Source: Promethearchaeota archaeon
Lineage (GTDB): Archaea > Asgardarchaeota > Heimdallarchaeia > Hodarchaeales > Hodarchaeaceae
NCBI GenBank assembly: GCA_048939265.1
Contig: JBHLPQ010000002.1
Span: 1 to 60,641 of the forward strand
Reading direction: 5' to 3'
DNA length: 60,641 nucleotides
In this document: positions 231 through 42,016 of the stretch, in pieces
How positions within the stretch are numbered: the stretch's first letter is position 1
How the letters are laid out: each line of letters begins with the position of its first letter
Program-made: the position numbers and the translations under genes
The notes under the pieces: model-generated
The model's database searches: none
Told to the model about the DNA's origin: nothing
The model's input: only the letters and a program-made list of their open reading frames with translations

Positions 231-1841
231 TTGAAAACATTAAGATTTTGGGTAGTTGGATTAAGAACTATTCTACGTTGGGTGAACCTGGAAATGGCAT
301 ATCAACGCAAAACGTGGAAGAAGTTTATGAAAACTATATTATCTCAGACTCCTGTCTATATCGCGAAATATCCTCCTTCAGATCAAAAAATACTCAATGA
401 ATTCCTTTCTATTTTACAAAATTACATCGTTGATACCCAGGAAAGCCGAAATCAGCTTTTTGAGCGTTTTGAAAGTTTCCCTGCGAAATATCATGAGAGT
501 GAGCAATTCCTCAACCTACCGTTCTTATGGTTTGTAGATAGCTATTTTTCAAATGCTGCAAAATTACTAAGTGTAGCAAGTTTTCATGCTGATGATTTTT
601 ATGAGTACTTAGTAAAACAACTCCGTGGATATCCAGATACCGAGGGAGTTTTCCAGCTCCTTCGTAAAGGTATTCCATTGACCGATCTTAAGTGGGAAGA
701 TCTTCAATATGCCTGTAATAAACTTAGTGTTCCACTCAAAAGTGAAGAACTACATACTCTTGAAACGATACATAGAATGTCTCTTGAAGCTGGAACTAAT
801 GCTTTAGATCAAAGATATATTAAAACTACTGTATTTAATACTGTAAAATCACCAACAGTTAACAAAAAGTTAGAGAATTTTTTTCTTAGATTAGATTCAA
901 GATGGTTTCTACGGTTTAATGTTCCGGCGTTTGATTTAAAGCTGTTCTTTTTTCAATTTAAACTGACGAATTCTACTTCTTTAAAGGAAATCATTGATTT
1001 CCATGATTCAACCAACACTACATTATGTAATAGCAGTATATATTGGAATCGAGATACCCCGAATATGTATTGTGGGATTTTAGTGGTACCTGTTAAGTCT
1101 GCAGATGTCTTCTTTCAGTATTTACAAAGCTGTCACAATCAAGATAAAGTAGAACTTATCGAATTAACTAAAATCAAGACAACTCGTATTAGTGTCTCAT
1201 TAATTCTCTATCAAGCTACAAAAGGATGGCGGACTCCAACTCCAACGGACTGGAGTAGATTAATTCCAATGTTACGGACGAAGTCCCCACGCAAAATACG
1301 TACGAATCTCTCATCATTATATCTTTCACCCCCTTTTGACAAAGAAACAATAGAAGAATATGATTTGACCCGAGCAGTTCAGCTTTTATGTAAACTACCC
1401 CGTGAATTTTCGTTTAAGGAATTGGTTTCAGGCTCAAACAAAGACCAAATCAAGATAAACCTAACTAAAATTGAATTCAAACTTCTAAAAGAAATGTATC
1501 AACGAAATATAGTTCAAATAGGATTTCTTTCAAGAGGATTGGTTTATGAGTTTTCACTTGATAATTATTGGATCAAAGTTCCTAAAATACCTCTTGATCA
1601 GCTTTCAAGGCTATTAGCTTGGATTCCATTTTGTCGCCTTTATTTCTCAGAAAATAATATTTTTATTTGGTCTTATTTGACTCGAGAGTTTGCTCATTGG
1701 TTGAGAACAGATCTAGAAGATTTAGAATGGACAGTCATACCAATTATAGAGAACCATAGGCCCCAAAATTTTAATTTTGACTGGTACGACAGTGACATTC
1801 AACAATGGAAAACACCTCACATTTTAAAGAATGAAAAATAA
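231..1841 (+). CDS. Family-A paralog 1: uncharacterised ~510-aa protein with two HTH-like segments
   Basis: 536-aa ORF from TTG 231; more likely start is ATG 294 (MAYQRKTWKKF aligns with MVRPGRESFKRF of other copies). Collinear with ORFs 5332, 21502, 30711, 40475 through blocks FHA..(Y/F)YEYLVK.LRG, W..LQY, PAF(G/D)L, EIIDF, G.L.VP, GW, LLK..Y, YEFSLD.YWI..PKIP, QW.TP. Confidence 0.85.
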   Translation: MKTLRFWVVGLRTILRWVNLEMAYQRKTWKKFMKTILSQTPVYIAKYPPSDQKILNEFLSILQNYIVDTQESRNQLFERFESFPAKYHESEQFLNLPFLWFVDSYFSNAAKLLSVASFHADDFYEYLVKQLRGYPDTEGVFQLLRKGIPLTDLKWEDLQYACNKLSVPLKSEELHTLETIHRMSLEAGTNALDQRYIKTTVFNTVKSPTVNKKLENFFLRLDSRWFLRFNVPAFDLKLFFFQFKLTNSTSLKEIIDFHDSTNTTLCNSSIYWNRDTPNMYCGILVVPVKSADVFFQYLQSCHNQDKVELIELTKIKTTRISVSLILYQATKGWRTPTPTDWSRLIPMLRTKSPRKIRTNLSSLYLSPPFDKETIEEYDLTRAVQLLCKLPREFSFKELVSGSNKDQIKINLTKIEFKLLKEMYQRNIVQIGFLSRGLVYEFSLDNYWIKVPKIPLDQLSRLLAWIPFCRLYFSENNIFIWSYLTREFAHWLRTDLEDLEWTVIPIIENHRPQNFNFDWYDSDIQQWKTPHILKNEK

Positions 1842-1910
1842 AAAAAAGAATATTATTGAGATAAGAGGAGAAAATAGAGAAGGGCTTCCAACACATAGTA
1901 TATTTGTGGC

Positions 1911-1949
1911 TTATTGGTATGGGCCAGTACCACCAGGAGGGGGAGACAC
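1911..1949 (-). CDS. Candidate convergent micro-ORF (12 aa, GTG start: MSPPPGGTGPYQ) downstream of family-A paralog 1
   Basis: Positional counterpart of the ATG-initiated MPP/MLPP micro-ORFs after the other four family-A genes. Minus-strand TATA-like ATTATATTTA (1992-1983) lies ~33 nt upstream. A-run 1842-1849 is a T-run on the minus strand. Confidence 0.3.
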   Translation of the reverse strand: MSPPPGGTGPYQ

Positions 1950-2038
1950 TTTATTATACCTCAGACCTCCACTCCATCAACTAAATATAATCTCCCAACT
2001 TTTTTCGACAAATAATACAAGTTAAATAAGCAATTTCT

Positions 2039-4183
2039 TTACATATCGCTAGGAATAAAATCCAGATTTTGATATGATTCACGTAATCTCCTTTGCTGAG
2101 GCTGATTTTGAAGAACGGTAATATCTATAGCTGATTCTAAAGTAACTGGAAAATCGTGGGTCTTCATAAGAGAGATTCGACCATTAATTGAAATAATACA
2201 TCGTCGTTCATCATTCTTAGCTTTTAATAAATTGCGAAATTGCTCATACTCATTTCTAGTTAAACCAAGTAGGTTTGATATGACATATGGATCAAATTTA
2301 GTGAAAAAAACAGCTAGAACTCCAGTATTCGTCAATATAGGCTGCTCTACTATCGGGTCAGTACCAACGAAGATCATAGAAATATCATACGCACGCAAGG
2401 TCCAAGGCCCCTTTGCAACTAAAGATTCAGGAGTCCTAGCTTTATAACTTCTAGGTGGAACAAGTTTTTGAATTTCATCTAGGACGATAATATTCTTTGG
2501 TAGAGAGTCTTCCTTGAACGGTGAGCGAGAACTCCGAACATAATAGTAGATGTATTGAAGAATAACATCAAGGAAAATTTGCCTCCCGCTTTGATCTTCC
2601 AATGACTCAAATGCCGAAAGGTCAATGATCGCATTCTGATCTAGTAAATTAGATACTTCAAATGTGGTTTTACGAACAGTCAGACATCTTCCAATATTCC
2701 CAAAAAGAAGCTTCTCAATACGATTCATTATACCAGCAGTGGTATTTTCTAGATACGCGCCCTTCATACCTAATTTTATTGGTGAATTTAGGTTATCAAG
2801 AAAAGTACGAAAATCCCCTTGGTCCTTCACAGTCTGAATGACCGCAAGATGAAGAAGACGGCGCATTTGGGGCGAAACAGCTTCAGAATCTTCAAAAAAA
2901 TGTTCAAGGAGAGACATAACAAATTGAATATGATCTTCTATGGGAATATCATTGTCTCCTTTTTCATTTTTGGGAATTTGGAATATATTAATTCCCCAAG
3001 GGAATGTGGTAGAGCCAGGTTTTAAATAAATAAAATTTTGACAAAAAGATTGGATTGGAGCAAGATACTCACCTTTAGGATCGAAAATTAGGAATTTAAC
3101 ATTCTTTATAAGAAATTCCTTGATTAAACCATATACAAAACGACTTTTCCCCTCACCAGTCATTCCAAAAACAGCCATATGTCTGTTCAGATCTTTTCCA
3201 TTAATCAATAGAGGGATCTTATCTGCTGTTTTACCACTAATAATTGGAATACCAAGATTAATCGCCTGCAAAGGAGTAGCTTCAGTGACACCAGATGAGA
3301 GAGTGTAATCTTCTTTATTAGGGACAAGAGTGTAACCTTCATGCGAGTACTGTCGTTGAGGAGGAAGAATAAAACTTATTAAAGAAAATCCATCAATAAT
3401 AATCGGTGAAATCAGTTTACGTCGCGAACAGAGACTTTTAAAGGAAGAAAAACGATGCCAAAAAGCTGGATAAACCCGTACTTTTAATCCATTCGAGATA
3501 AATAGAACAGATAACCTATCAAGCTTGGATTGTAACGCCTGTTGACTATTTTCAACTACTAAGATTCGCGGTGAGAATTTAAAGCATCCAGTTTCTTCCA
3601 TTATATTCTTTCTTTGAGGATTAAATCGACGTTCTACCTTTCCTCTTTGAATATCAAATCGAACTTGTGTCATATGACTTTCTGGAGTTTCATCTGTCTG
3701 GTATTCCTTTGGAAGCTTGATAGGTTTGAAAACCAATTGAATATATGCAAATTGAGGATTATCCGTTAAAATTTCAAGAATATTATCTGAAAAACCATCA
3801 GCTGTAGTGATAGATTGATTTGCTTTGTCTCTTAATCCAATTACCCCTCCACAAAAATATTTAGGACCATCAGAACCTACCTGAAAGTTTGTTTGGAGAA
3901 TTTCTAGTACCTTTTGGACTGGTGTTTCCCCTATGTGATGATAATCTGAATGAAGGCCAAGTGCTGTGGCAAATTGTTGGATAGTTGCCATCCCCCTTTC
4001 TATTCCTTTTTTACGGATTCGTCCCTGTGGAAGAGGAATCATCTTAATCCAGACAGTTTTAGGATCAAAAATCGTGTACTCTAATGAAAATGCTTGTTTA
4101 GCATTTTGAAAGACTTTTATACTAGATTTGTCTGCTCTCATTGGAATGTGATCGAAATTGAAAGCAGGTGTGTTTTCAATCAT
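2039..4183 (-). CDS. FtsK/HerA-superfamily P-loop NTPase (DUF87/HerA- or VirB4-like), motifs intact
   Basis: 714 aa; Walker A AVFGMTGEGKSRF, Walker B NIIVLDEIQKL; ~330-aa N-terminal extension; convergent with family-A paralog 1. Confidence 0.7.
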   Translation of the reverse strand: MIENTPAFNFDHIPMRADKSSIKVFQNAKQAFSLEYTIFDPKTVWIKMIPLPQGRIRKKGIERGMATIQQFATALGLHSDYHHIGETPVQKVLEILQTNFQVGSDGPKYFCGGVIGLRDKANQSITTADGFSDNILEILTDNPQFAYIQLVFKPIKLPKEYQTDETPESHMTQVRFDIQRGKVERRFNPQRKNIMEETGCFKFSPRILVVENSQQALQSKLDRLSVLFISNGLKVRVYPAFWHRFSSFKSLCSRRKLISPIIIDGFSLISFILPPQRQYSHEGYTLVPNKEDYTLSSGVTEATPLQAINLGIPIISGKTADKIPLLINGKDLNRHMAVFGMTGEGKSRFVYGLIKEFLIKNVKFLIFDPKGEYLAPIQSFCQNFIYLKPGSTTFPWGINIFQIPKNEKGDNDIPIEDHIQFVMSLLEHFFEDSEAVSPQMRRLLHLAVIQTVKDQGDFRTFLDNLNSPIKLGMKGAYLENTTAGIMNRIEKLLFGNIGRCLTVRKTTFEVSNLLDQNAIIDLSAFESLEDQSGRQIFLDVILQYIYYYVRSSRSPFKEDSLPKNIIVLDEIQKLVPPRSYKARTPESLVAKGPWTLRAYDISMIFVGTDPIVEQPILTNTGVLAVFFTKFDPYVISNLLGLTRNEYEQFRNLLKAKNDERRCIISINGRISLMKTHDFPVTLESAIDITVLQNQPQQRRLRESYQNLDFIPSDM

Positions 4184-4281
4184 GAGAGGAACAACTCAAA
4201 AAGGAAGTTTGCACATTCTCACTTTGAAGTTATACTTATTTACTCCCAAAAATAATAAAAGTATCTTACACAACTCTGAAT

Positions 4282-4572
4282 TCATTGATTATTTAAATTC
4301 AGATAATTCTGTCGGATTTTGTGTATATTTTTCCATGATACCTCCTCTTCTACAGGTATTTCATTCATTAACTCTAGAACTGTCTTTAAAACCTGATTAA
4401 TAGGAATATTCTTCTCATCCTCTTTTATTATCAATTTGACAGTCTTCATTGAAGATGATTTCTTGATCTTACGGTTTTTTGGGGGAAATTTTTGCTTAGG
4501 TAATAACAACTGGACAGCCTTCAAATTTACCACATCATTAACTACTGAAGAAGGAAGAATATAATTACCCAA
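4282..4572 (-). CDS. Hypothetical small protein upstream of the ATPase gene
   Basis: 96-aa ORF with TTG start; alternative ATG at 4449 gives 55 aa. Same strand as and 98 nt upstream of ORF 2039-4183. No recognisable domain. Confidence 0.35.
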   Translation of the reverse strand: MGNYILPSSVVNDVVNLKAVQLLLPKQKFPPKNRKIKKSSSMKTVKLIIKEDEKNIPINQVLKTVLELMNEIPVEEEVSWKNIHKIRQNYLNLNNQ

Positions 4573-5331: not shown

Positions 5332-6867
5332 GTGGTTCGTCCAGGCCGCGAGAGTTTTAAACGTTTTATCAGCACTATTATGGATTTATTACCACCTTAT
5401 ATTGAAAAATATCCACCCTCTGACCAACTTCTGTTGAGGGAGTTTCTATCAGTCCTTCGACACTATGATGAAGCTGACTATCAACGAAAGAAGCTATCCC
5501 AGCGATTCAGAGAATACATTGATAGACATTTCAACACTGATCAATACTTACAAACTGCTTTTCTCTGGTTCACTGATACATACTTTAGAAATGCATATAG
5601 ATTATTAACTGTCTCAAAATTTCACGCAAATTCCTATTATGAATACTTGGTAAAACATTTACGGGGGAGCTCCAACATTCCAGGGGTTTTTAAACTGATA
5701 CAGAATAAAGTTTCAATTACAAATCTTGCTTGGGAGCAATTACAATATGAAAGTGTTAAACTTATAGTTCCCCTTACAATTGACCAATTACAAATCATTT
5801 CAACTGTTTATTCTGCTGTTATGGAAGAAGGAGTTCACGCTTTAGATTCTCGAAAACTGAGAGCGCTTATCGGAAATCAGGTGGGCTCTCCAAGAAATTT
5901 AAATGATGAGCTCATCCGTTTCTTTAATTTAATAGATGGACAGTGGGTATATCGTTTTTTTACGCCAGCTTTTGGATTAGATATGGTTATTATGCAAATT
6001 CAACTAGATGGATCCGTTTCTCTAGAAGAGATTATTGATTTTCAAAACCCCGCGAATACAGTTATTAGTAGAAGTGATGTATATCTAGTTAGAAACTTGC
6101 CAAATACCTATATTGGGATATTAAGCGTCCCTACTCAAGATTTTGAACAATTAAAAGGATATCTTCAGGAATGTGAACATCAGGGAAGATTAATCTTAAA
6201 AAGCTTAGAAAAAATAGAAACAAGGAGATTTAGTAGTTCTCTAGCACATTATCGTACGAACACAGGTTGGTTTGAACCAAGTCCATCTAGAATGCGGAGA
6301 TTAGCACAGTTATTAAGGACTCAAAATCCGAGAGAAAACCAGGGACAGTATTCTTCACTTTTCATTCCACCTCAATTTAACTCTCATTGGCATTTCAGCG
6401 ATCATCCTCTTCCTAGAGAGATCATCAATCTTTTCTGTAATATATCCCTTCATACATACACATATCAAAATCTTCCTTTAACCAATCAAGATCTCTTCTC
6501 ACTTACGCAAGCTGATGTTGGTTTATTAAAGCAGTTATTTTATAACCGAGTTTTACAAGTCAGGTTTGTCCCCCAGCGATTGTTGGATGAGTTTTCACTT
6601 GACTTATACTGTATAATTCTACCCAAAATCCCAGTTTACCAGTTAATACACTTTTTAAATTTAATTCCAAATAGTGATGTATATTATACTGAGGAATCAA
6701 TCTATGTGTGGGGTCGGTTTACTTCCAAACTTATCCAATGGATCGAAAATAATCTTCAATGGACTGTATTGCAGATAATACGAAAAAATATTCCCTTAAA
6801 CTTTGAATTTAATCAATTTGATCCAGGGGAACTTCAGTGGATAACCCCACAGTTCTTGAGAGAATGA
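5332..6867 (+). CDS. Family-A paralog 2
   Basis: 511 aa, GTG start (MVRPGRESFKRF); roughly half identical by eye to the 21502 and 30711 copies; same block order as all five. Confidence 0.9.
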   Translation: MVRPGRESFKRFISTIMDLLPPYIEKYPPSDQLLLREFLSVLRHYDEADYQRKKLSQRFREYIDRHFNTDQYLQTAFLWFTDTYFRNAYRLLTVSKFHANSYYEYLVKHLRGSSNIPGVFKLIQNKVSITNLAWEQLQYESVKLIVPLTIDQLQIISTVYSAVMEEGVHALDSRKLRALIGNQVGSPRNLNDELIRFFNLIDGQWVYRFFTPAFGLDMVIMQIQLDGSVSLEEIIDFQNPANTVISRSDVYLVRNLPNTYIGILSVPTQDFEQLKGYLQECEHQGRLILKSLEKIETRRFSSSLAHYRTNTGWFEPSPSRMRRLAQLLRTQNPRENQGQYSSLFIPPQFNSHWHFSDHPLPREIINLFCNISLHTYTYQNLPLTNQDLFSLTQADVGLLKQLFYNRVLQVRFVPQRLLDEFSLDLYCIILPKIPVYQLIHFLNLIPNSDVYYTEESIYVWGRFTSKLIQWIENNLQWTVLQIIRKNIPLNFEFNQFDPGELQWITPQFLRE

Positions 6868-6931
6868 AAGATAATGTAAAGTTCAGAAAAAAAAAAGAAA
6901 AGGGAAGTTGTTCTTAAATGATTTGCCTTAT

Positions 6932-6967
6932 TCATAGTGTGGGTTCGCCGCCACCAGGAGGGAGCAT
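6932..6967 (-). CDS. Candidate convergent micro-ORF (11 aa: MLPPGGGEPTL)
   Basis: ATG 6967. Minus-strand TATA-like TTAATAAAGG (about 7008-6998) lies ~30 nt upstream, with GGTGAAAAACC just before the ATG. A-run 6887-6896 is a T-run on the minus strand next to the A2 stop. Confidence 0.35.
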   Translation of the reverse strand: MLPPGGGEPTL

Positions 6968-7239
6968 GGTTTTTCACCACATCCCCATTCCACAACGCCT
7001 TTATTAACTCCCAAAATCATTCTAGTAAGTTTATCCTTACTTTAGGCAAATATAAATATACCTAAGAATGTATGAGAATATTAGCAGGTTTATTTAAAGA
7101 AACAGATTGTTTAGACATCTGTATTATCATTTTGACATCACATTTCTAGTATCATAAATAGCTTTTAATCTCACGAAAATAAGACGATTATTTTTCACAG
7201 AGATAACTGAAAATGACGAACTATAATTTTGTACGCGCT

Positions 7240-7632
7240 TCATTCTGAAAGAAGAGGGAATAAAAAGCCAATATAAACGCCTTGAGCTATAATAGCTACA
7301 ACTAATGCGAAAAAGAAGCTCAAGAGAGTCCCAATGAGATAATATTCTGCAAATTGACGGTGTTCAAGTTGCTTAAACCGCGCCATCGATTTGGCAACGA
7401 AAACGAATGAAATTGCCCCATATTCTCCAAGTAAACCAAAAGTAAGAATAATTCCTCTCTCCAACATACCAATGACTTTTCCTGCGCCAGGTAAACCTGT
7501 TTCGGATGAATTCTCAAGTGAGATATTAAGAGATTTCAAGAAGAACTCCACAAAGAATCCACCAACTATTATAGCAATGAAATATGCACAGATATAATAA
7601 CCACATAGAAGTAATAATGGCATCCAGCTCAT
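7240..7632 (-). CDS. Small polytopic membrane protein (possibly DUF3307-like), coupled to upstream regulator gene
   Basis: 130 aa, about 4 hydrophobic helices. Its ATG overlaps the stop of ORF 7632-8255 (TAATG). Confidence 0.55.
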   Translation of the reverse strand: MSWMPLLLLCGYYICAYFIAIIVGGFFVEFFLKSLNISLENSSETGLPGAGKVIGMLERGIILTFGLLGEYGAISFVFVAKSMARFKQLEHRQFAEYYLIGTLLSFFFALVVAIIAQGVYIGFLFPLLSE

Positions 7633-8255
7633 TAATGCTCATCCTCGAAATGTTCAATGAAAATGTCTGTTAGATTATCCAACATGTCAATAGCTAAGAA
7701 AACAGCTTTTGACTGGGTGTATTTAAGAATTTTGGACACAGCCTGTTTACTTATCCCTTTCTTCTCCCCAATTTCTTCATATGTCATTCCTTCCCGTCTA
7801 AACTGAATAATCTGCCGTTGATGATCATTCCACCTAGTTTTGATTGCATATACCAGCGTTAAAAGAGTGTTCACCATTTTATCGAAGTGAGTATTGCCAG
7901 ATGACATCCAAGCATAGCACCGCTCTTTCTTTGCAGTATTGAGGGCATCTTGGGCACGGTGAAAAGCTAATCCATCCATTTCCAAGGTGTTAGGAGAAAA
8001 TTCAGTTGAAATTTCCCCAATTCCCACCCCACATCGAAATTCAATGGAAATCAATTGCTCAAATGTATCTAAAATGTTGTAGAATCCATTAAAGGATTTT
8101 AAAGCCCCCTGAAAGGAATCACCCCAGACAAGAGTAAAAGGACATAAAAGTTCGTTTGAAAATCTTTCGTTGACAATATTCACAGCATTCTTTAATTCTT
8201 GTTGAACTTTGAATCTTTCCTGAACTTTTTTCGATTGAATAAGATCACAAGTCAT
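7632..8255 (-). CDS. SatD-like regulator: cyclase-like N-domain plus C-terminal HTH
   Basis: 207 aa; LVWGDSFQG motif reminiscent of the nucleotidyl-cyclase/SatD fold; C-terminal sigma-70 region-4-type HTH MTYEEIGEKKGISKQAVSKIL. Confidence 0.5.
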   Translation of the reverse strand: MTCDLIQSKKVQERFKVQQELKNAVNIVNERFSNELLCPFTLVWGDSFQGALKSFNGFYNILDTFEQLISIEFRCGVGIGEISTEFSPNTLEMDGLAFHRAQDALNTAKKERCYAWMSSGNTHFDKMVNTLLTLVYAIKTRWNDHQRQIIQFRREGMTYEEIGEKKGISKQAVSKILKYTQSKAVFLAIDMLDNLTDIFIEHFEDEH

Positions 8256-21273: not shown

Positions 21274-21408
21274 TTCCAGATATTAAGTACATTCAAATAT
21301 TTAAATTTTCAGATCATATTAAAAAGTCTCTCCTAGGCGTTTATTCACTAAAAGTGAGTAACTCATCCAGAATAATTCTCCTAGAATGAATCTTTATAAG
21401 AGTTATAT

Positions 21409-21430
21409 AAGATTGCAAAATCTTTTAAAT
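21409..21430. promoter_or_regulatory. Palindrome AAGATTGCAAAATCTT overlapping the TATA-like box of family-A paralog 3
   Basis: AAGATT-GCAA-AATCTT (21409-21424) runs into CTTTTAAAT (21422-21430), ~85 nt upstream of ATG 21514. A near-identical arrangement occurs at 30666-30688. Confidence 0.4.
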
Positions 21431-21501
21431 CCGATGTTTATCTTTTTGTCAGTTAAGAGTGGAATAGAGTTTAAATTTTCTAAGCGTTTTTCTTTTCAGA
21501 G

Positions 21502-23040
21502 ATGAGTAGTGAGATGGTTCGTCCAGGTCGGGAGAGTTTTAAACGCTTCCTTAAAACCATTCTTAACCAGCTACCAGCTCATGTTGAACAATATATAGCA
21601 CAAGATCAAGAATTGTTGAACGATTTCTTATCAGTACTTCAACATCATGAAGAGGCTGAATTTCAGAGAAAAAAACTTTCAAAGCGGTTTGAAAGGTATA
21701 TTAAGAGCATTTCTGGAACGGATCAATACTTACAAACTCCTTTCCTATGGTTTTCTTTCACTTACTTTTCTAATGCAAGATTATTGTTAAGTGTATCAAG
21801 ATTTCATGCAAATTTATTCTATGAATACTTGGTAAAACATCTTCGGGGTAACAATGGAAATCCTGGAGTTTATAGGCTAGTATGTGAAAATACTCCCTTA
21901 TCAGATCTCACATGGGAGCAATTACAGCATGAAAGCAATAAACTCATTGTCCCACTTACTGAAGACCAACTACAAATATTAAATACAGTATATTCTTTTA
22001 CTAAGGAAGCAGGAATATATTCATTGGATCCTCAGAAGCTTCGAGAGGCTATTGTTAAACAGGTGAGTTTTCCAAGAAACCAGAAGCCATTTGATGAGCT
22101 AAAACGATTTTTCACTCGTGTTAATGGACGGTGGGCCTTACATTTCTTTTCCCACGTTTTTGGTTTGGATCGTTTAAATATCCAGATAGAACTCCAAGAA
22201 TCTACTTCATTAGAGGAAATAATCGATTTTAATGACACTGAAAACACGGTCTTAACCATAAGCGATGTATTTGAAGTTAGGGGTCAAGCAGAGAATTATA
22301 TTATGACCCTATATGTCCCCATTCAGGCAGTTGACTGTCTAGAAAGATATTTTCTGAATCGTGAGAAAGAGAGATCCTTAATCCTAAAGGACATGTCAAG
22401 GGTAATAACCACTAATATAAGTGCCTCTCTAAACCAGTATAAAGCGAATGTTGGATGGATTGAACCAACACAAACGCAAATACAAAGAATCACACGAATA
22501 TTAAGATCAACACGACCCCCCAACTCTAAACTCTTCTATCATCCACCGTTTAATAATCATTGGGATTTCAAACAGCACCCACTTCCCGTTGAGATAATTA
22601 AGCTTTATAGTAATATCCCCTTAGATTATTCATACTCCAATCTACCATTAAACAATCATCAGGATTTGACACATCTGACTAGAAAAGAAATTGGGCTGTT
22701 AAAGCAATTATATTATAATAGAGTAGTGTACACGGGATTTGTCCCATGGCGATTAGTATACGAATTTTCACTTGATTTATATGGCATAAATTTACCTAAG
22801 ATCCCCTTTATCCAGCTTCAACAGTTCTTAATTCTGATTCCCTTTAGCCAAATCTATTTCACAGAGAAATTAATTCATATTCGTGCTCGTGTAACTCCTA
22901 AACTCGTTCGTTGGATAGAAAGAGACCTTGAATGGACGATTTTTCCAATAATAAGGAAACAATATCGTCTTGATCTTGAGTTTAATTGGTTTGATTCAGA
23001 ATTACTTCAGTGGAGAACTCCAGGAATTATAGACCAATAG
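21502..23040 (+). CDS. Family-A paralog 3
   Basis: 512-aa ORF; probable start is ATG 21514 (MVRPGRESFKRF). Confidence 0.9.
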   Translation: MSSEMVRPGRESFKRFLKTILNQLPAHVEQYIAQDQELLNDFLSVLQHHEEAEFQRKKLSKRFERYIKSISGTDQYLQTPFLWFSFTYFSNARLLLSVSRFHANLFYEYLVKHLRGNNGNPGVYRLVCENTPLSDLTWEQLQHESNKLIVPLTEDQLQILNTVYSFTKEAGIYSLDPQKLREAIVKQVSFPRNQKPFDELKRFFTRVNGRWALHFFSHVFGLDRLNIQIELQESTSLEEIIDFNDTENTVLTISDVFEVRGQAENYIMTLYVPIQAVDCLERYFLNREKERSLILKDMSRVITTNISASLNQYKANVGWIEPTQTQIQRITRILRSTRPPNSKLFYHPPFNNHWDFKQHPLPVEIIKLYSNIPLDYSYSNLPLNNHQDLTHLTRKEIGLLKQLYYNRVVYTGFVPWRLVYEFSLDLYGINLPKIPFIQLQQFLILIPFSQIYFTEKLIHIRARVTPKLVRWIERDLEWTIFPIIRKQYRLDLEFNWFDSELLQWRTPGIIDQ

Positions 23041-23084
23041 AAAAAAAAGAAGAAAGGAGGAGGTAACTTCTAACAAGTTAAACC

Positions 23085-23120
23085 TCATTTTGGATTATCT
23101 CCACCATCTTGCGGGGGCAT
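23085..23120 (-). CDS. Candidate convergent micro-ORF (11 aa: MPPQDGGDNPK)
   Basis: ATG 23120. Minus-strand TTTATAAA (23155-23148) lies 27 nt upstream, with GGTTGAAAAAAAG before the ATG. A hairpin AGGT(TT)AAC..GTTACCT follows, then a T-run (= A-run 23041-23048) abutting the A3 stop. Confidence 0.35.
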   Translation of the reverse strand: MPPQDGGDNPK

Positions 23121-23374
23121 CTTTTTTTCAACCTCGAGTATTTTGCCTTTATAAACACCCAAAAATTCTGAAGAGAAACCTTCTTTTTCGCAGATTGCAC
23201 CATTAAAAGCACCTAAATATTCGTGTTTTAGGCAAAAACCACTATTTCTGAAAAAAATGATTTATAAACCTAACGGAATCGAGATCTTCCCTTAACCATT
23301 ATAAGGATCCAAATTTGGCAAATCCCCGAAATTAACAAAATAGGGAGGTAATGAAATCACCTAGCGATACTAAT

Positions 23375-23462
23375 CTGAAGAAGAACTCCAACAAACACCT
23401 TTCGGATCGACAACCGAGAATCCGTCATATTGACAGCGGAGCTAACTTATCTGGGATATAAC
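23375..23462 (+). other. Conserved non-coding block shared with 42329-42442
   Basis: CACCTTTCGGATCGACAACCGAGAATCCGTCATATTGACAGCGGAGCTAACTTATCTGGGATATAAC is ~87% identical over 67 nt to the block after paralog 5. It contains nested inverted repeats TCGG..CCGA and CGGAT..ATCCG. Confidence 0.6.
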
Positions 23463-23580
23463 ATAGAAAATGTGTTCTTTGAGGCGGGGGATTTCGAAGG
23501 AAAGACGCTCACAGGAGAAATCAAGCGAGATAAGGATTTCTATCAATAGATAGTCGATTAATAGTGTAGATCGGTCATTA
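23445..23580 (+). repeat. R element-like, degenerate
   Basis: ACTTATCTGGGATATAAC...GGATTTCGAAGGAAAGACGCTCACAGGAGAAATCAAGCGAG...CGATTAATAGTGTAGA parallels the R order (ACTTG.., hairpin region, AATCAAGGCG, CGATTAGTGGGAG). Confidence 0.4.
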
Positions 23581-28525: not shown

Positions 28526-29658
28526 TGGAGGATCTGAACTTGATGAGAATAAACCAGTATGGAAGACGACTAGCGATCGTGTTAGGTATCCTCTTAACCA
28601 GCGGAGTGATCGGATCAGAACCCATAGCGAGTGGGAACCCAGGGGGGGAACAAAAATATAGTGAAAAAACCATTGGAACTAGTAAACTTCACCAAATACC
28701 CCAATCTATTAGTCAAAACTTAGAACTGGTTCTTCGAAACTCCTCTATACAATACATCGAACACGAACCAATCTTCATAAATGATAACTGGAAATTTCAA
28801 GAGTGGAATGGGAGTGGAACAGAAGCAGATCCGTTTATCATAACAGGCCTTAATATCACCAGTACATCTGATTGTATATGGATTCAAAGTACAGATGTTT
28901 ACTTCCAAATAATAAATTGTATTCTAATAGGGGGAGGTGCAGTCTTCCCTGGTAGTAATGGGATTACCCTTTTTGATGTAAAAAATGGGATTATCAAAAA
29001 CAATTTCATTACCCAGCATGAGAACGCAGTTGGCCTTGGAGGAGCTAGTAACAACGTAATTACTAATAATTATCTGGTCCAAAATTTCAGAGGGGTGGGA
29101 GGTAGTGACAGTACTGATAATCTATTTGTGGAGAATACCATTCATAATTCAGAAGAAATAGGCATAAATCTAGGTGATTCGAATACAAACATAATCGCAA
29201 ACAATACGATTTCGTATAATCTGGGCCATGGGATCTTATGTGAGGGGGACTCAAATGGAAATGTCATAACATGGAATAATTTTATAGATAACAATCCCTT
29301 TGAAGCAAAACAAGTGGACGATCACAAAGGAACTAAATCGGACAATTTATTTCAGTACAACTATTGGAATGACTGGACAAGTCCAGATATAAATGAAGAT
29401 GGGATCGTAGACACCCCGTACACGTTTTGGAACTACAATCAAGATCAATTTCCATTGACGTCTCCAGCACCAGCTGCACCCAGAATTCCCGAAAAACCAG
29501 CTGGTTTTGAATCACAAAACCCTGTTAAACAGTTAGATACCTCAGCGTATGCGCGCTTAGGAATATTTTGTGGGGTGTGTGTGGTTGTGTTCGGATGGAG
29601 TATGATAGCTCTCCTCCAAAAAAGGCTCCCAAATTCACTTGAAGCAAACGACTCCTGA
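28507..29658 (+). CDS. Secreted/anchored beta-helix (NosD-like) protein
   Basis: 383 aa in the track; likely start is ATG 28525 (TAATG overlap with the upstream stop) or 28543. NYWNDWTSPDINEDGIVDTPY motif as in the 53922 protein; C-terminal TM. The last ~22 nt and the stop lie inside an R copy. Confidence 0.8.
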   Translation: MGEIFLMEDLNLMRINQYGRRLAIVLGILLTSGVIGSEPIASGNPGGEQKYSEKTIGTSKLHQIPQSISQNLELVLRNSSIQYIEHEPIFINDNWKFQEWNGSGTEADPFIITGLNITSTSDCIWIQSTDVYFQIINCILIGGGAVFPGSNGITLFDVKNGIIKNNFITQHENAVGLGGASNNVITNNYLVQNFRGVGGSDSTDNLFVENTIHNSEEIGINLGDSNTNIIANNTISYNLGHGILCEGDSNGNVITWNNFIDNNPFEAKQVDDHKGTKSDNLFQYNYWNDWTSPDINEDGIVDTPYTFWNYNQDQFPLTSPAPAAPRIPEKPAGFESQNPVKQLDTSAYARLGIFCGVCVVVFGWSMIALLQKRLPNSLEANDS

Positions 29659-30562: not shown

Positions 30563-30665
30563 CTGATAATTAATTATCTAACATCATTTCCTATATTTTT
30601 AAGAAATTAAGTTTGAATCTAACTGAAGGTATAAAACAGACCTCAAGAGCTTTTATACGATTTAT

Positions 30666-30688
30666 AAGATTCCAATATCTTTTAAATA
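30666..30688. promoter_or_regulatory. Palindrome AAGATTCCAATATCTT overlapping the TATA-like box of family-A paralog 4
   Basis: AAGATT-CCAAT-ATCTT followed by TTTTAAATA, ~83 nt upstream of the probable GTG start 30771. Same layout as 21409-21430. Confidence 0.4.
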
Positions 30689-30710
30689 ACAAGAATCATT
30701 TCTTAATTGG

Positions 30711-32315
30711 TTGAAAAGAAAATTAGGATTAGTGTTTCCAGTTCTCTCCTTTCGTGAGGTGAGCAATATAGTGGCACGGCCTGGTCGAGAGAGTTTTAAA
30801 CGTTTTATTAAAACAATTCTCGAACAAATTCCCCCCTATATTAAGGGATACTTACCATCAGATCAAACTTTATTGACAGAATTCTTCTCAATTCTCGAAA
30901 ATTACGAGGAGGCCGATTTTCAGAGAGATAGACTCTCACAACGAATCGAAAAATACATTGAAGGGATTTCTGAAACACCAGAACTCATAGAGAAAGCATT
31001 TCTTTGGTTTACATACTTCTATATACAAAATGCGGATACTTTATTGAATATTTCTGGATTTCACGCCGACTCCTTTTATGAATACTTAGTTAAACATCTC
31101 AGGGGGAGTGGGGACACTCCAGGAGTATTCAATCTGATTCGCCAGCAAGTACCACTGACAAATCTGGCATGGGAAAAATTACAGTATGAAAGTAACAAAC
31201 TCATCTATCCTCTTTCAGAACAGCAACTACAAATCATACACGCTCTATACTCATTTATTAAAAAAGGGGGAATAGACGCCCTAAATCCACGAAGAATTAA
31301 AAAGGCTATAACAAACCAAGTACCTTTTCAGTCGAATGAGAAACCAGCCACCATACTTTCACGGTTTTTTAAATTCATTAATGGTTCTTGGTACTTACGT
31401 TTTCATAGTCCTGCCTTTGGTTTGGATCGTTTGGCTTTTCATTTTGAAGTAAATAAAGGGAGGTCGCTAAGTGACATAATCGACTTTCTTGACTCAAGTT
31501 CCACGGTGTTAGGTTATAGCGCAATATACTATGATCGAAACAATCCCAAAACCCATTTTGGTACATTAGTTATCCCAATAGAAACAATTAACCAGTTAAC
31601 AGAGTATCTTCATCAACGAGACGCAGAAGGAGCTATCAACCTAATTGATTTAACAAAAATAAACAGCATACATCGAAAGGTGTCGTTTGAAAAGTATGAA
31701 ATAGGCACTGGATGGGCACAGCTGAAAAAAACGGAACAGCAGCGATTAACCGATCATATAAAGGCGAAAAATCCTCGAAAAATGAGAAAACCAGCTGCAT
31801 TATCATTCACTACTCCAGACTATAACATTGACTGGAATTTCAGGGATCATCCCTTACCCTCTGAAATCATTCAATTGTATTGCAGAGTTCCAGGCGAATT
31901 TTCGTATTCGTCACTACCAATCCAACCAGTAGATAGACAAAACGCGTTTACACTCTCGCAAGCAGAAATCGGGTTATTGAAACAATTACTCTATAACCAT
32001 GTGGTTCATATTGGATTCGTCCCATATCGTCTAGTTTATGAATTTGCATTGGATGCCTATTGGATTAAAATCCCCCAAATTCCCCAAATTCAATTGAAAA
32101 AATTCCTAAACATATTACCATATTGTGAATACTATCTTACTGATTCTTCTATTCTGGTATGGACGAGATTAACTCCCCAATTGAGACAATGGATAGAAAA
32201 GGACCTCCTGTGGGAAATCTATCAACTCCTACCAACACATCCTCCACAAGAATTGAAAGAGGAATGGTTTGATGACAATAATCTCATGTGGATTCCACCT
32301 GAATTTCTCCAGTAA
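30711..32315 (+). CDS. Family-A paralog 4
   Basis: 534 aa in the track; probable start is GTG 30771 (VARPGRESFKRF), preceded by GAGGTGA. Confidence 0.9.
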   Translation: MKRKLGLVFPVLSFREVSNIVARPGRESFKRFIKTILEQIPPYIKGYLPSDQTLLTEFFSILENYEEADFQRDRLSQRIEKYIEGISETPELIEKAFLWFTYFYIQNADTLLNISGFHADSFYEYLVKHLRGSGDTPGVFNLIRQQVPLTNLAWEKLQYESNKLIYPLSEQQLQIIHALYSFIKKGGIDALNPRRIKKAITNQVPFQSNEKPATILSRFFKFINGSWYLRFHSPAFGLDRLAFHFEVNKGRSLSDIIDFLDSSSTVLGYSAIYYDRNNPKTHFGTLVIPIETINQLTEYLHQRDAEGAINLIDLTKINSIHRKVSFEKYEIGTGWAQLKKTEQQRLTDHIKAKNPRKMRKPAALSFTTPDYNIDWNFRDHPLPSEIIQLYCRVPGEFSYSSLPIQPVDRQNAFTLSQAEIGLLKQLLYNHVVHIGFVPYRLVYEFALDAYWIKIPQIPQIQLKKFLNILPYCEYYLTDSSILVWTRLTPQLRQWIEKDLLWEIYQLLPTHPPQELKEEWFDDNNLMWIPPEFLQ

Positions 32316-32358
32316 TGAAAAAAAGGTAGGAGGGGGGAGTGGATATAGAATTTTAACT

Positions 32359-32391
32359 TTATTTGGGAGGAGGAGAACCTGGTGGAGGCAT
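32359..32391 (-). CDS. Candidate convergent micro-ORF (10 aa: MPPPGSPPPK)
   Basis: ATG 32391. Minus-strand TTCTTAAAGA (32433-32424) lies ~32 nt upstream, with GGTGAAAAATAAA before the ATG. CTGGTG..CACCAG inverted repeat spans the start. A-run 32319-32325 is a T-run on the minus strand. Confidence 0.35.
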   Translation of the reverse strand: MPPPGSPPPK

Positions 32392-32589
32392 TTTATTTTT
32401 CACCAGTTCTCTATTCCGTACAGTCTTTAAGAACACCCAACATTTACCCAATGGACTATTAATTGAGTTTTTTAAGATTTGAAATTTACCAATTGCCATT
32501 CACAGTCTTTTCCACGCGCTCCATATAAGCTCCCAAGCAAAAGTGTACACTATCACTGAGACATGAGTTATAAAACAAAAGCCCTGCAG

Positions 32590-32647: not shown

Positions 32648-33061
32648 TATTATTATGAATTATACATTTATTGCTGAAACTCCTTCCTTCATCAGAAGAT
32701 TTTTAGCTGCTTGCACATACTCCTCGAATTTCTGAAAGGTCATCTCTCTCGGGGTCAAGTCACTTTCTTTTTGCCACTCGTCCACCTGTTCCCAAATCAT
32801 CGTTAAGTCTACATTGGGGTTGAGCTCTAATCAAAGGTTGAACACTTAAAAACACCAAACTAATTAGTATCAGCGAAATATCCATCAATTCTTTCTCCCA
32901 AGGTTTTTTTACCTTCTGTTGGGAGTCTGAGTGAACTTTCATCCTTTCTTTCATTCGTCTCCGACTAGCTTAAGTTTTCCCCCTATCACCTATTTATGTT
33001 CATTCACGTTAGAGTGGTATTTTTCGTGTGAAGACCTTCCCTCAGAAAATAAATAGGAAAA

Positions 33062-33150
33062 GACAGACATCAGACCACTGGCACTCTACTTGAAGCACAC
33101 GACTCCTTAACGCAAAATGACGAGAGGGCCATCTCAATTTCCACACGGTT
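33062..33150 (+). repeat. R element copy (short-3'-end variant)
   Basis: GACAGACATCAGACCACTGGCACTCTACTTGAAGCACACGACTCCTTAACGCAAAATGACGAGAGGGCCATCTCAATTTCCACACGGTT. CTTAAC..GTTAAG is a terminal inverted repeat. Confidence 0.85.
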
Positions 33151-35434: not shown

Positions 35435-35800
35435 ACTCAGAGTACTAGACAAGGCTTCTCAGCTATGTGTAGCTCCACAATCCACTTCCTTATATTTCCT
35501 CCGAAACGCAAGAACAGTGGGCATGTGTTAAGAAAATGACCTAAGGTTTCATAAACGAGTGGGGGGTAACTTTATATTCAATAAAACCCTAAAGAATCAG
35601 GGGATTCTTCAAGAGGTTTCATGATGAAAGAGCGTGAAAGCAAAGAAAAGGATATTGTCGTAGAAGGGACAGTCATTGACAACCCCCTTTTCGGGGTGCA
35701 TATAATCACAAAACTACGCATTATTTTTTAACACAAGCCAGGTGTATAATGAAACGTTACAGTTCGGATTCAATTCCCCTTACTAGACGAACTATCCTCA

Positions 35801-35906
35801 TATCAGACCAACTACTCTCTACTTCAAGTATACGACTCCTTCAAGCTATTTGACGAAAAAACCATCTCATTTTCTAATCAAATCGCCCTGGTGCGATTAG
35901 TGGGAG
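35801..35906 (+). repeat. R element copy
   Basis: TATCAGACCAACTACTCTCTACTTCAAGTATACGACTCCTTCAAGCTATTTGACGAAAAAACCATCTCATTTTCTAATCAAATCGCCCTGGTGCGATTAGTGGGAG. Confidence 0.85.
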
Positions 35907-35955
35907 AAATTATCTGGGTTATAGGTTCGAGGGATAGAAGGACTTATATACTTCT

Positions 35956-38232: not shown

Positions 38233-38290
38233 TTATTGAAAGCCATCTGACGAAAGATTTTTCGGGGAAAAATCTCAAGTTCTATAAACT
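38233..38290 (+). repeat. R element, central part
   Basis: TTATTGAAAGCCATCTGACGAAAGATTTTTCGGGGAAAAATCTCAAGTTCTATAAACT, between convergent genes. Confidence 0.65.
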
Positions 38291-38303
38291 CGTTTTTTTT
38301 CTT

Positions 38304-39111: not shown

Positions 39112-39207
39112 TACAAACATCAGATCGTTTGTTCGCTACTTGAAGCACACGACTCCTTAAACAAACTGACGAAAGATTTTTTGGGAAAAGCTCACTTTCC
39201 ACACGGG
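39112..39207 (+). repeat. R element copy (short-3'-end variant)
   Basis: TACAAACATCAGATCGTTTGTTCGCTACTTGAAGCACACGACTCCTTAAACAAACTGACGAAAGATTTTTTGGGAAAAGCTCACTTTCCACACGGGTAG; abuts the stop of ORF 39213-39599. Confidence 0.85.
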
Positions 39208-39212
39208 TAGTA

Positions 39213-39599: not shown

Positions 39600-39674
39600 T
39601 CTCCATCACCAAATAGAGGATTAATTATAGCTTAATTCTTTCAATAAATTCTTGTGATATTCAATCTGAATTGT

Positions 39675-40034
39675 CTAATCCTCACTCTTATACCTAGCAT
39701 AAAAACACCTCGCACAGAGAGGTTGAGAACTCTTATACAAGTCACAATAAAATGTGGGTGCTTCCTCGGTGCTGAATTGGGGAAGATTTTGTCGTGTGCA
39801 ATACAGGCACTCAATATCAAGTTCTCTCTCTAGCGCGTCCTGATAGGAGCCTGGGGCACCTTCGACGAAAAATGGACAGCGGGCAGGACATTTGGTATTT
39901 ACTTCTTTTAACTTCAAACAGAAACCAATATTGGCAGCTCGAAGTAGATAAACACAATTCATGCGTTCTCCTTTCCTCATTTGTTCATTATTTACTACTA
40001 ATACTTTTAAATTGTTACACGGGGACACTGACAA
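39675..40034 (-). CDS. Cys-rich small protein (tandem paralog of 39213-39599)
   Basis: 119 aa; CLKLKEVNTKCPARCPFFVEGAPG plus further CxxC pairs. Confidence 0.6.
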   Translation of the reverse strand: MSVSPCNNLKVLVVNNEQMRKGERMNCVYLLRAANIGFCLKLKEVNTKCPARCPFFVEGAPGSYQDALERELDIECLYCTRQNLPQFSTEEAPTFYCDLYKSSQPLCARCFYARYKSED

Positions 40035-40474
40035 TCACCTTATTGTTATTAGATGATGTTTAGAGATATCAATTTCATGCATATTGGTGAAAATGATATC
40101 CATGATCTTATATTTCATTTATATACTCGAAAAAAGTGATATTGTCGAAAAGCTTGCTAATTACCTTTTATTACTGGTAAAATGCATTAATTAACTTTTG
40201 ACATTTAAGAATATAATAATTTTGTTAAAAACTCTCAAATTTCGGTTTTTTCGACTGAATTTCGTGATAGAAGATTACCATCTTAAGTTAAAACACTGGT
40301 ACCTCTGAAAAAGACTGTTAGCAAGGAATATTATAAACATCATAAGAAGACGATTTAAAATTAAAATTCTAAAGAGATTGAAAATAATTATTGCAACTCT
40401 AAAAATCACTGAAACAGGTATAAAATAACATAATCATAGAATGGATCATTCTTACCGACCATGGTGGTTTATGA

Positions 40475-42016
40475 TTGGTAAAAAGAATCGAAGTACTCAA
40501 AAAATTCATTGTGACATTTGTTGACCAGGTACCAAAATACCTTTCCCCTTATTCCTTATCAGAAAGGAAATATATAATTGAATTACTTGATTTACTTAGA
40601 CTCTGCGAATCTCAAGCGGATATTGCCAGAGAAGAACTCTCCACACGTTTGGAAACCTATTGTACTCAGCTTAAAAATGGAAAGGATTACTATTCCACCC
40701 CATTCTTGTGGCTTACAGAAATCTACTTCGATAATGCAAATCTGTTCCTTAGAGTCGCCGATTTCCATGCGTCCAATTTCTATGATTTCCTAGTTCAGGT
40801 CATTAGAGGATTTGCTGACTTACCAGGACTTTTTCAACTCATTCGCGAAGGAACGTCTTTACAAGACTTAAAATGGGAAAAATTACAATATCATGTTATT
40901 AACAGTTTTAAATTCCCGCTAACAGAGGAAGAACTAATAACAATAAAGGAGCTTTATTCATTTATTTATTCAGCTGGAATTGATGGATTTGATCAAAAAA
41001 GTATAGCTATTAATTTGAAAGCAAAGCAAGGGATGTCGGAAAGAAAATACAAAGATTTCATACAATTATTAAATCTATTAGATGCGTTATGGAGTTTTTT
41101 CCTATATTTACCAGCATTTGGTCTTAGATATTATTATGCACATTTCAATTTGAAAAAGCTATATTCATTAGAAGATATTTTTGATTTTTTCGATGCTACC
41201 AATACAACCCTTTGTCACAGTCGAATATATAGAATAGACAAATTTCCAAACAGTTTTATGGGATATTTAGTGGTCCCTATGAATAAATGGGACAAATTGA
41301 GAAATTACTTTCATAAATGTGAACGTCAAAACAAGTTAAAATTAATAGAGTTAACAGAGATACGAGACATTTATAGAAGTATTTCTCTTTCAAATTATCA
41401 TGCGGGAAAAGGTTGGCCAACTCTTTCTTCTAAAGAAATTAAGGATTTAGTTCAACAATTGACTGTGAAACATCCTCGGAAGTTAAAGAAAAAGCATCCT
41501 GCGTTGTTTCACGATAAACCTTATAACCATGATTGGGACTATAAAAAGGGCCGGGATCCAAAACAGATAATTTCCCTGGTATGCAAAATACAACGGAAAT
41601 TCTCTTATGAAACCTTACCAATTAATTCTGAAAATGATAAAATCGCTTTCTCCAAGTCTGAGATAGAAATTTTAGAGAATTTAATCCAAAATAAACTCTG
41701 CCAACCATTTTTTTCATTAGATCACATCCGTTATGAATATTCTATTGATGTTTATTCGATTAGAACGCCTCATATGCCTATAAAACAGATCTCACGCCTT
41801 TTAAGGGTTCTTCCATCTGCTCATCTAAACATAATGGAGAATTCAATCGTTATATGGACTCATCTATCATCACAAGATAGGAAATGGATAAAAGAAGAGC
41901 TAGGATGGGAACCATGGCATATTATACCATATAAACGTCAGCAGGCTCTTGATTATACTTGGTTTAACTCTAAAACACTCCAATGGAGCCCTCCCAAAGT
42001 TTTCGAGGATTTATGA
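40475..42016 (+). CDS. Family-A paralog 5 (diverged)
   Basis: 513 aa, TTG start (MVKRIEVLKKF); same block order (FHASNFYDFLV..IRG, PAFGL, DIFDF, GYLVVP, GW, HPRK, YEYSIDVY, LQWSPP). Confidence 0.85.
   Translation: MVKRIEVLKKFIVTFVDQVPKYLSPYSLSERKYIIELLDLLRLCESQADIAREELSTRLETYCTQLKNGKDYYSTPFLWLTEIYFDNANLFLRVADFHASNFYDFLVQVIRGFADLPGLFQLIREGTSLQDLKWEKLQYHVINSFKFPLTEEELITIKELYSFIYSAGIDGFDQKSIAINLKAKQGMSERKYKDFIQLLNLLDALWSFFLYLPAFGLRYYYAHFNLKKLYSLEDIFDFFDATNTTLCHSRIYRIDKFPNSFMGYLVVPMNKWDKLRNYFHKCERQNKLKLIELTEIRDIYRSISLSNYHAGKGWPTLSSKEIKDLVQQLTVKHPRKLKKKHPALFHDKPYNHDWDYKKGRDPKQIISLVCKIQRKFSYETLPINSENDKIAFSKSEIEILENLIQNKLCQPFFSLDHIRYEYSIDVYSIRTPHMPIKQISRLLRVLPSAHLNIMENSIVIWTHLSSQDRKWIKEELGWEPWHIIPYKRQQALDYTWFNSKTLQWSPPKVFEDL

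Follow-up and report, generated by a model that had tools for sequence, protein, structure and literature searches.

What are five related genes, all facing the same way, doing within 42 kb of DNA from an Asgard archaeon? The genes, here called family A, lie in a stretch of 60,641 nucleotides (nt) from a Promethearchaeota archaeon placed in the Hodarchaeaceae (contig JBHLPQ010000002.1 of assembly GCA_048939265.1, positions 1 to 60,641; hereafter the window), a region of low G+C content (0.32–0.42) with a gene content typical of Asgard archaea (WD40, Ras-like GTPase, NosD/beta-helix proteins, HerA, PIN, RDD and SatD). The first-pass annotation, made from the letters of the sequence, had taken the family to be the best candidate for the protein component of a mobile, cassette-shuffling or regulatory system. 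In this report, we find that family A in the window looks like a set of five old, fixed paralogs of an uncharacterised Asgard protein with a double Lrp/AsnC-like architecture, that a convergent micro-gene encoding a Pro-Pro peptide directly follows every copy, and that protein and peptide may form a regulatory pair.

Results

Five paralogs of one Asgard family

The five genes lie on the + strand inside 42 kb, and both a multiple alignment (alignment A1) and a family hidden Markov model (HMM) bear out the initial view of them as co-oriented, collinear paralogs; the motif blocks quoted at that stage are seen in the alignment. Identities range from 31 to 54%: copies 2–5 are 35–39% identical to copy 1, whereas identity to copy 2 is 54% for copy 3, 46% for copy 4, 39% for copy 1 and 31% for copy 5. 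A scan of the window with the family HMM gave five matches, exactly those copies, with E-values of 1e-182 to 1e-200. The mechanically called starts of copies 1, 3 and 4 are probably too far upstream, and the alignment together with Shine–Dalgarno (SD)-like GGTGA or GAGGTGA sequences points to the later starts given in Table 1; on the same kinds of evidence, the starts of copies 2 and 5 stay where they were called.

The family proved as unrecognisable by sequence as had been supposed. Scanning the five copies against Pfam, NCBIfam and PADLOC, and 33 homologs against Pfam, gave nothing consistent, and PDB sequences searched with profiles from alignments of 33 and 76 sequences yielded no match below E=0.5. 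Homologs of about 500–535 amino acids (aa) were found only in metagenome-assembled genomes (MAGs) of Asgard archaea (kingdom Promethearchaeati; source labels Promethearchaeota, Hodarchaeota, Heimdallarchaeota and Thorarchaeota), and wherever a source names them they are "hypothetical". When 1.84 billion cluster representatives (50% clustering) were searched exhaustively with the HMM, only 186 matches came back, all of them full-length proteins or fragments of a single architecture. Clustered paralogs are often seen in other MAGs too (in our numbering of the related loci, L006, L007, L014, L016 and L026).

A miniature gene convergent with every copy

Directly 3' of every copy in the window, on the opposite strand and convergent with it, lies a complete miniature gene. 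It comprises a promoter-like motif (consensus TTTGGGTGTTTATAAAGGC) that begins 43–53 nt before the start codon, an SD-like GAGGT or GGTGA 6–10 nt upstream of the start, a micro-open reading frame (micro-ORF) of 10–14 codons whose peptide of 10–13 residues carries the universal motif M-x(0–2)-P-P-x(1–2)-G, and, abutting the stop codon of the protein gene, a stretch of pyrimidines that includes 6–10 consecutive T. The promoter motif, at times present in two or three copies, scores above 15 bits in the window solely inside these modules. The micro-ORF pattern occurs eight times in the 121 kb of the two window strands, five times exactly at the expected sites, where chance would give about 0.01 per site. 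The 3' antisense module of the first-pass annotation is thus strongly confirmed, with a convergent micro-ORF, its own promoter motif and a T-run at 5/5 copies. On the + strand, the first T-run after the protein gene, as read from the sequence, lies beyond the micro-ORF; the transcripts of the protein gene and the micro-gene must therefore overlap. The window gave no match in Rfam or tRNA scans, and neither the module nor the R repeat described below is a known RNA family. A longer ORF through the promoter motif (for example 6834–6995 (-)) was considered and rejected, its frame differing between copies.

The convergent micro-gene is present in 28 of the 30 family loci examined, including one on the Heimdall chromosome CP070665. 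At L016 the family gene lies on the opposite strand and the micro-ORF is correspondingly on the other, and at L032 the micro-gene is still present beside a protein just 22% identical. The peptides track the protein clades: that of copy 1 is VSPPPGGTGPYQ, with VSPPLHGTGPDQ at L026b, where the start is again GTG, and MSPPPGGPGPKE at L008, and orthologs of micro-gene 4 encode MPPQDGSPPSQ and MPPQSGSPPCQ. Third positions of the Pro codons vary and the length of the ORF is conserved. Directly after the Pro-Pro the residue varies widely, with Q, K and A frequent, while a Gly one or two residues further on is conserved; this suits a recognition motif better than one that serves stalling alone. GTDB genomes scanned for a strict version of the module pattern gave one true and two chance matches, the pattern being too strict to inform.

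An N-terminal domain and two Lrp/AsnC-like modules

The full-length model of copy 2, built by AlphaFold2 with the 33-sequence alignment, is confident, with a predicted local distance difference test score (pLDDT) of 92.2 and a predicted template modelling score of 0.89. It shows a helical N-domain (about residues 1–140) and then two similar blocks, each consisting of helices followed by a domain of beta-alpha-beta-beta-alpha-beta type. Fold searches with the models, which had been put forward as a check on the family, gave a divided answer. For the whole chain, Foldseek returned no match at E<=1e-3 against PDB and BFVD, the weak likenesses being to chlorite dismutase, ABM, ACT (PAH regulatory domain) and two-domain ferredoxin-like proteins; such a likeness to dimeric alpha+beta barrels and ACT is expected because of the paired RAM domains. 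Unit 1 (residues 141–310 of copy 2, modelled alone; pLDDT 89.4) led to Lrp/AsnC: its top matches are almost all full-length Lrp/AsnC regulators, plus the enzyme AhbA/B, with a probability of 1.0, template modelling (TM) scores of 0.5–0.61, 153–172 aligned columns of 170 and 9–17% identity. Among them are Pyrococcus PH1519/FL11 in complex with DNA (2e1c), E. coli Lrp (2gqq) and AsnC (2cg4), Sulfolobus ST1022, PH0061, PH0140, Mycobacterium tuberculosis LrpA/AldR, NMB0573 and AhbA/B (4czd); the matched entries further include 2dbb, 7fby, 4pcq, 2efq, 2qz8 and 2p5v. Unit 1 thus has the form that marks Lrp/AsnC regulators, whose module of about 150 aa has an N-terminal helix-turn-helix (HTH) followed by a RAM domain, and the segment earlier described as HTH-like is accounted for by this fold.

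In the full model, the secondary-structure elements of unit 2 follow the same order as those of unit 1, its HTH looks degenerate or reduced, and the motifs PAFGLD and YEFSLD each stand just before the first strand of an alpha/beta domain. The internal duplication proposed in the first-pass annotation is supported by this topology and motif position but not by profile–profile comparison, in which hhalign gave a probability of 0.5–2%, which is not significant. As modelled, the family-A protein begins with a helical domain, after which two HTH+RAM-like modules stand in tandem and make the single chain a pseudo-dimer. The family is basic (mean net charge +8.8), with the charge concentrated in the HTH of unit 1 (+2.9) and the inter-unit linker (+4.0). 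The majority of near-invariant residues lie in the N-domain (Y27, R52, Y72, F77, W79, W134, E135 and Q138) and at the junction after unit 1 (S303, Y307, G312 and W313), and not in the HTH.

Synteny and the R repeats

Every copy in the window is matched by orthologs of its own in other MAGs, with which it forms a separate clade, and this bears out an old expansion and not a recent spread of copies. Orthologs of copy 1 are L026b (71%) and the gene at L008 (56%), those of copy 4 lie at L024 (73%) and at L005 and L022 (65%), and copy 2 has syntenic orthologs in L026a, L001 and L010. L026, L001, L008 and L024 keep the gene order found around copies 1, 2 and 4, and the neighbouring genes are 63–94% identical. 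The orders copy 1–HerA–96-aa ORF and copy 2–130-aa ORF–SatD–224-aa ORF are kept in L026, L001 and L008 (at L026 with family-A identities of 71% and 57% and neighbours of 63–80%), HerA adjoins both orthologs of copy 1, and the neighbourhood of copy 4 recurs in part in L024 and L022. The window contains no transposase or integrase genes. Profile scans and fold searches agreed with the initial failure to see a recombinase, transposase or nuclease signature; no profile matched a catalytic domain of the DDE/RNase H, HUH, serine- or tyrosine-recombinase type, and the fold searches returned only Lrp/AsnC and ferredoxin-like matches. The copies are fixed syntenic orthologs in related MAGs, the very outcome that had been named as telling against mobility, and the mobile or cassette-shuffling part of the first-pass annotation falls with it. 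The association of family A with the antisense module holds despite this outcome, and so tight a tie supports the regulatory option.

Each copy had also been described as sitting among R repeats of its own polarity. R is about 140 nt long and occurs in 18 copies between 16.7 and 60.2 kb (16769–60247; for example 33042–33150, 35785–35919, 49718–49846, 51498–51646 and 53589–53741), all on the + strand, and in the related MAG loci, with the family gene set to +, 42/42 R matches are on + as well. The shared polarity therefore stands. The placement of R at each copy does not: copies 1 and 2 have no R in the roughly 10 kb around them, nor do their L026 counterparts have one nearby, ten R lie beyond copy 5 (across a further 18 kb), and R occupies nearly every intergenic region of its span, whatever the orientation of the flanking genes. 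R is a polar, region-wide element, probably mobile, and not part of the family-A cassette; its polarity suggests a replication-oriented or single-stranded-DNA-inserting (IS200/IS605- or REP-like) element, or a chromosome-polarity signal.

Just past micro-genes 3 and 5 (23394–23549 and 42365–42535) is a short, conserved ORF on the + strand (MKENTIRIDNRKSAILTAELTYLGYN…); its two versions are 86% identical over 72 nt, and L003 has the sequence past its micro-gene as well. The version near copy 3 seems to be frameshifted. Near copy 5 the ORF is interrupted: an R begins directly after …GYN (42444) and takes the place of the C-terminus, so R itself may be mobile.

Table 1. Coordinates of the family-A genes and of the convergent micro-genes in the window
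Feature	Coordinates	Strand	Details
Family-A copy 1	294..1841	+	Mechanical start 231, likely ATG 294; 515 aa; HMM E 3e-199
Family-A copy 2	5332..6867	+	GTG start; 511 aa; copy used for modelling
Family-A copy 3	21514..23040	+	Mechanical start 21502, likely ATG 21514; alignment, HMM
Family-A copy 4	30771..32315	+	Mechanical start 30711, likely GTG 30771; alignment, HMM
Family-A copy 5	40475..42016	+	TTG start; 513 aa; most diverged in window
Micro-ORF 1	1911..1949	-	Peptide VSPPPGGTGPYQ, GTG start; promoter-like motif 1981–1999 (-); T-rich tail reaching copy 1 stop codon
Micro-gene 2	6932..7015	-	ORF 6932–6967, MLPPGGGEPTL; promoter motif TTTGGGAGTTAATAAAGGC 6997–7015 (25.3 bits); T-run at about 6890–6900
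Micro-gene 3	23041..23217	-	T-run 23041–23048; ORF 23085–23120, MPPQDGGDNPK; promoter motif 23145–23163 (27.2 bits), second, weaker copy 23199–23217
Micro-gene 4	32316..32441	-	T-run; ORF 32359–32391, MPPPGSPPPK; promoter motif 32423–32441
Micro-gene 5	42017..42276	-	T-run ~42029–42036; ORF 42070–42102, MPPKDPSGME; promoter motif 42128–42146, extra copies at 42179 and 42258

Upstream regions and neighbouring genes

AT-rich inverted repeats and conserved promoter motifs lie near both the protein gene and the micro-gene. Upstream of copies 3 and 4 and their orthologs is a conserved double TATA-like promoter with a short palindrome, CTTTATAAGAGCTATATAAGATTGCAAAATCTTTTAAAT (window 21395–21450 and 30640–30700; also L002, L004, L005 and L024), and inverted repeats lie between TATA box and start codon at copy 2 (8 bp; GTTCCATC…GATGGAAC) and at copy 5 (6 bp). 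The palindrome and the inverted repeats of copies 2–5 are candidate operators. The 5' untranslated regions of the family-A genes are long, about 70–100 nt.

A gene for a HerA-like ATPase (DUF87) invariably converges on copy 1 and on its orthologs and is followed by the conserved 96-aa ORF (window 231–4572; L008 3995–8513; L026 4009–8432); the micro-gene of copy 1 is located between the protein gene and HerA, and HerA weakly matches the PADLOC HerA/mad8 models. Downstream of copy 2, a gene pair conserved in three MAGs encodes the 130-aa ORF and a SatD-family protein of 207 aa with a sigma-70 region-4-like HTH (window 7240–8255 (-); L026 11908–12938; L001 5936–6966), and its stop-side end faces the promoter region of the micro-gene. 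Elsewhere in the window are four NosD/right-handed beta-helix proteins, one of them 1752 aa long (53922–59180 (+), 16968–18434 (-), 20197–21273 (-) and 28507–29658 (+)); the gene at 20197–21273 has an internal repeat with a period of 69 nt at 20399–20849.

Discussion

We propose, as a working interpretation to which we would give rather less than an even chance, that the family-A protein is a ligand-responsive, nucleic-acid-binding regulator built as an Lrp-like pseudo-dimer, that the micro-peptide is its cognate effector or partner and that feedback takes place at the micro-gene promoter. Each locus would then be a two-gene regulatory cassette. In the protein, a family-specific helical domain of about 140 aa, which holds most of the invariant residues, precedes the two Lrp/AsnC-like modules; two basic parts, the HTH of unit 1 and the linker between the units, would bind nucleic acid, and the ligand may be sensed by the paired RAM-like domains, by the aromatic-rich N-domain or by both. 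The micro-gene, with a dedicated promoter, SD-like sequence, short ORF and oligo-T terminator, would be expressed on its own account, its peptide acting as effector or partner of the adjacent protein, and the module-specific promoter motif would be the likely site at which the regulator feeds back on peptide production. Transcription of the protein gene is predicted to cross the whole micro-gene before a + strand T-run is reached, and the two transcripts may thus by design interfere with each other to some degree, by antisense pairing or by collision. A more specific proposal, that the Heimdall and Hod Asgards possess multi-paralog receptor–peptide pairs in which an unprocessed PPxG peptide is recognised by its own regulator, with feedback at a shared promoter, seems to us unlikely.

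Several observations weigh against a regulator–peptide pair. The micro-gene is missing at L007, where the next gene is another family-A gene, and at L031, the homolog that diverges most, whose gene belongs to a co-directional operon. Constraint on the peptide is weak, with a ratio of nonsynonymous to synonymous change (pN/pS) of about 0.6 in six ortholog pairs; the peptide is hydrophilic (rich in Pro, Gly, Asp, Asn and Lys) and has no export signal, and the promoter motif, being common to all paralogs, cannot give paralog specificity. As to the protein, the Lrp-like fold of unit 2 is a matter of topology only, the equivalent of the recognition helix is not strongly basic, and a link to Lrp/AsnC at the sequence level was not found: hhalign against a small Lrp alignment gave a probability of about 1% (the E. 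coli Lrp sequence used agreed with 2gqq), 0/33 family members match the HTH_AsnC-type or AsnC_trans_reg models of Pfam even at E<=1, and the 272 kb of fetched family loci yielded no Lrp homolog. The known ligands of RAM domains are amino acids, not peptides, and AhbA/B demonstrates that an Lrp/AsnC-like fold can be an enzyme.

The same protein could instead be accompanied by a micro-ORF that works in cis as a Pro-Pro translation sensor and not through its peptide, an explanation that we regard as somewhat unlikely. Slow translation of Pro-Pro (with Gly or Asp) in the absence of aIF5A, the archaeal orthologue of EF-P/eIF5A, would make ribosomes pause on the transcript of about 100–130 nt, the pausing would change how stable the micro-transcript is or the extent to which it runs on into the protein gene's 3' end, and the convergent regulator mRNA would be tuned by antisense pairing or transcriptional interference. 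Prokaryotic ORFs this short are typically cis-acting leader peptides, such as ErmCL and the cat/cmlA leaders, and eukaryotes have upstream ORFs (uORFs) with a PPW motif that sense eIF5A and polyamines, as in AZIN1. The micro-ORF resembles these leaders and uORFs in being very short and in its proline-based, hard-to-translate motif, with the dependence on EF-P or (a/e)IF5A that this implies; the Pro-Pro is invariant at codons 2–5 of peptides rich in Pro, Gly and Asp, the remainder is only weakly constrained, and the strict convergent, overlapping geometry is kept even where the gene is inverted (L016). EF-P and eIF5A are documented as the factors by which polyproline stalls are rescued. Stalling leaders and uORFs, however, act on a downstream ORF of the same mRNA, whereas the micro-ORF, its Pro-Pro motif notwithstanding, leads into an oligo-T terminator and from there into the antisense of the protein gene, and its transcript, which contains no downstream ORF, ends at a T-run facing the convergent gene. 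No conserved terminator or anti-terminator hairpin was found between the micro-ORF and the T-run, only oligo-T tracts; Q, K and A, often present after the Pro-Pro, are not the strongest stallers, while the downstream Gly and the length of the ORF are conserved; and the dedicated strong promoter, SD and terminator look like those of a gene made for its product.

Alternatively, the protein may not be a transcription factor: it could use the Lrp/AsnC fold as an enzyme or scaffold, with the conserved N-domain as its active or binding site and the micro-peptide as substrate, cofactor precursor or subunit; we consider this distinctly improbable. Its models are the siroheme decarboxylase AhbA/AhbB and the NirDL/NirGH proteins, in which Lrp/AsnC-fold modules form a hetero- or pseudo-dimer and are sometimes fused in tandem, and it would suit the presence of AhbA/B among the matches of unit 1, the position of most invariant residues outside the HTH and the degenerate HTH of unit 2. 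Family A, however, has no profile match to these proteins, a different N-terminal domain and multiple paralogs; no heme-biosynthesis genes stand beside it in the window or the related loci, and no biosynthetic genes of any kind are conserved there. Neither a cofactor or metal motif nor a catalytic-domain match in Pfam, NCBIfam or PDB was found, the overall charge is basic, and at least five paralogs, each with a promoter and a peptide, are more typical of regulators. A new kind of transposase or recombinase that acts together with the R repeats would account for the multiple co-oriented copies, for an R polarity that equals gene polarity in every locus with R and for the small ORF interrupted by an R, but it is effectively refuted by the synteny, and we give it almost no weight: the paralogs are deeply diverged, they contain no recombinase or nuclease fold or motif, and R, absent near copies 1 and 2 and their L026 counterparts, far outreaches the family.

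For the ligand-responsive regulator that we favour, the Lrp/AsnC (feast/famine, FFRP) proteins are the closest structural counterpart. One family-A unit of about 170 aa superposes over its whole length on HTH+RAM (probability 1.0, TM 0.5–0.6), its 'L..RFF.LIDG.W..RFF.PAFGLD' is, by eye, placed like 'L.R.RRLE..G.I.GY.A.L.P..LG' of Lrp, and the two have in common a basic charge and an expected logic of DNA binding plus effector sensing, which for family A is a prediction. Unlike Lrp/AsnC proteins, with which it shares no detectable sequence homology and which are homodimers, family A has two modules fused in one chain, an extra conserved N-domain of 140 aa, a basic linker of 80 aa and a reduced second HTH. 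To our knowledge, pairing with a micro-peptide gene is not a feature of Lrp/AsnC loci.

Such pairing recalls the Rgg/SHP and RopB/LCP systems of streptococci, in which convergent, ultra-short peptide genes adjoin regulators, a genome has several such paralogous pairs, and peptides and receptors have diversified together (PMC3679016, PMC10518010). Family A has the same trait of an adjacent ultra-short peptide gene co-diversifying with the protein at the 28 loci mentioned above, and, as in group III Rgg/SHP and RopB/LCP, a short convergent peptide gene right downstream of the gene for a cytoplasmic regulator; LCPs are products of 8–10 aa that are used without a leader. The differences are considerable. 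RRNPP receptors combine an HTH with TPR, whereas family A has a helical N-domain and a double Lrp-like fold and gave no TPR or RRNPP profile match in Pfam; the streptococcal peptides are highly hydrophobic, exported and re-imported, whereas those of family A are hydrophilic and rich in Pro and Gly, and the related loci show no conserved transporter beside the pair. The known systems belong to Bacteria (Firmicutes, RRNPP family) and family A to Asgard archaea. In the literature searched, we found neither family A nor the Pro-Pro micro-ORF described, and the fused double Lrp/AsnC-fold architecture with a micro-peptide gene as partner is likewise not described there.

Asgard archaea are the closest prokaryotic relatives of eukaryotes, and regulation in them is almost unexplored. 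A family that is invisible to every profile library becomes open to testable biochemistry through its double Lrp/AsnC-like identity, and its micro-gene would rank among the shortest conserved protein-coding genes in archaea. If the micro-ORF is a Pro-Pro translation sensor, aIF5A or polyamine status would be tied to archaeal gene control; if its peptide is the ligand of the regulator, this would be the first regulator–micro-peptide signalling outside Firmicutes-type systems. Receptor–peptide pairs, if they exist, would mean peptide signalling in archaea, intracellular or from cell to cell, by way of a fold not previously known to read peptides.

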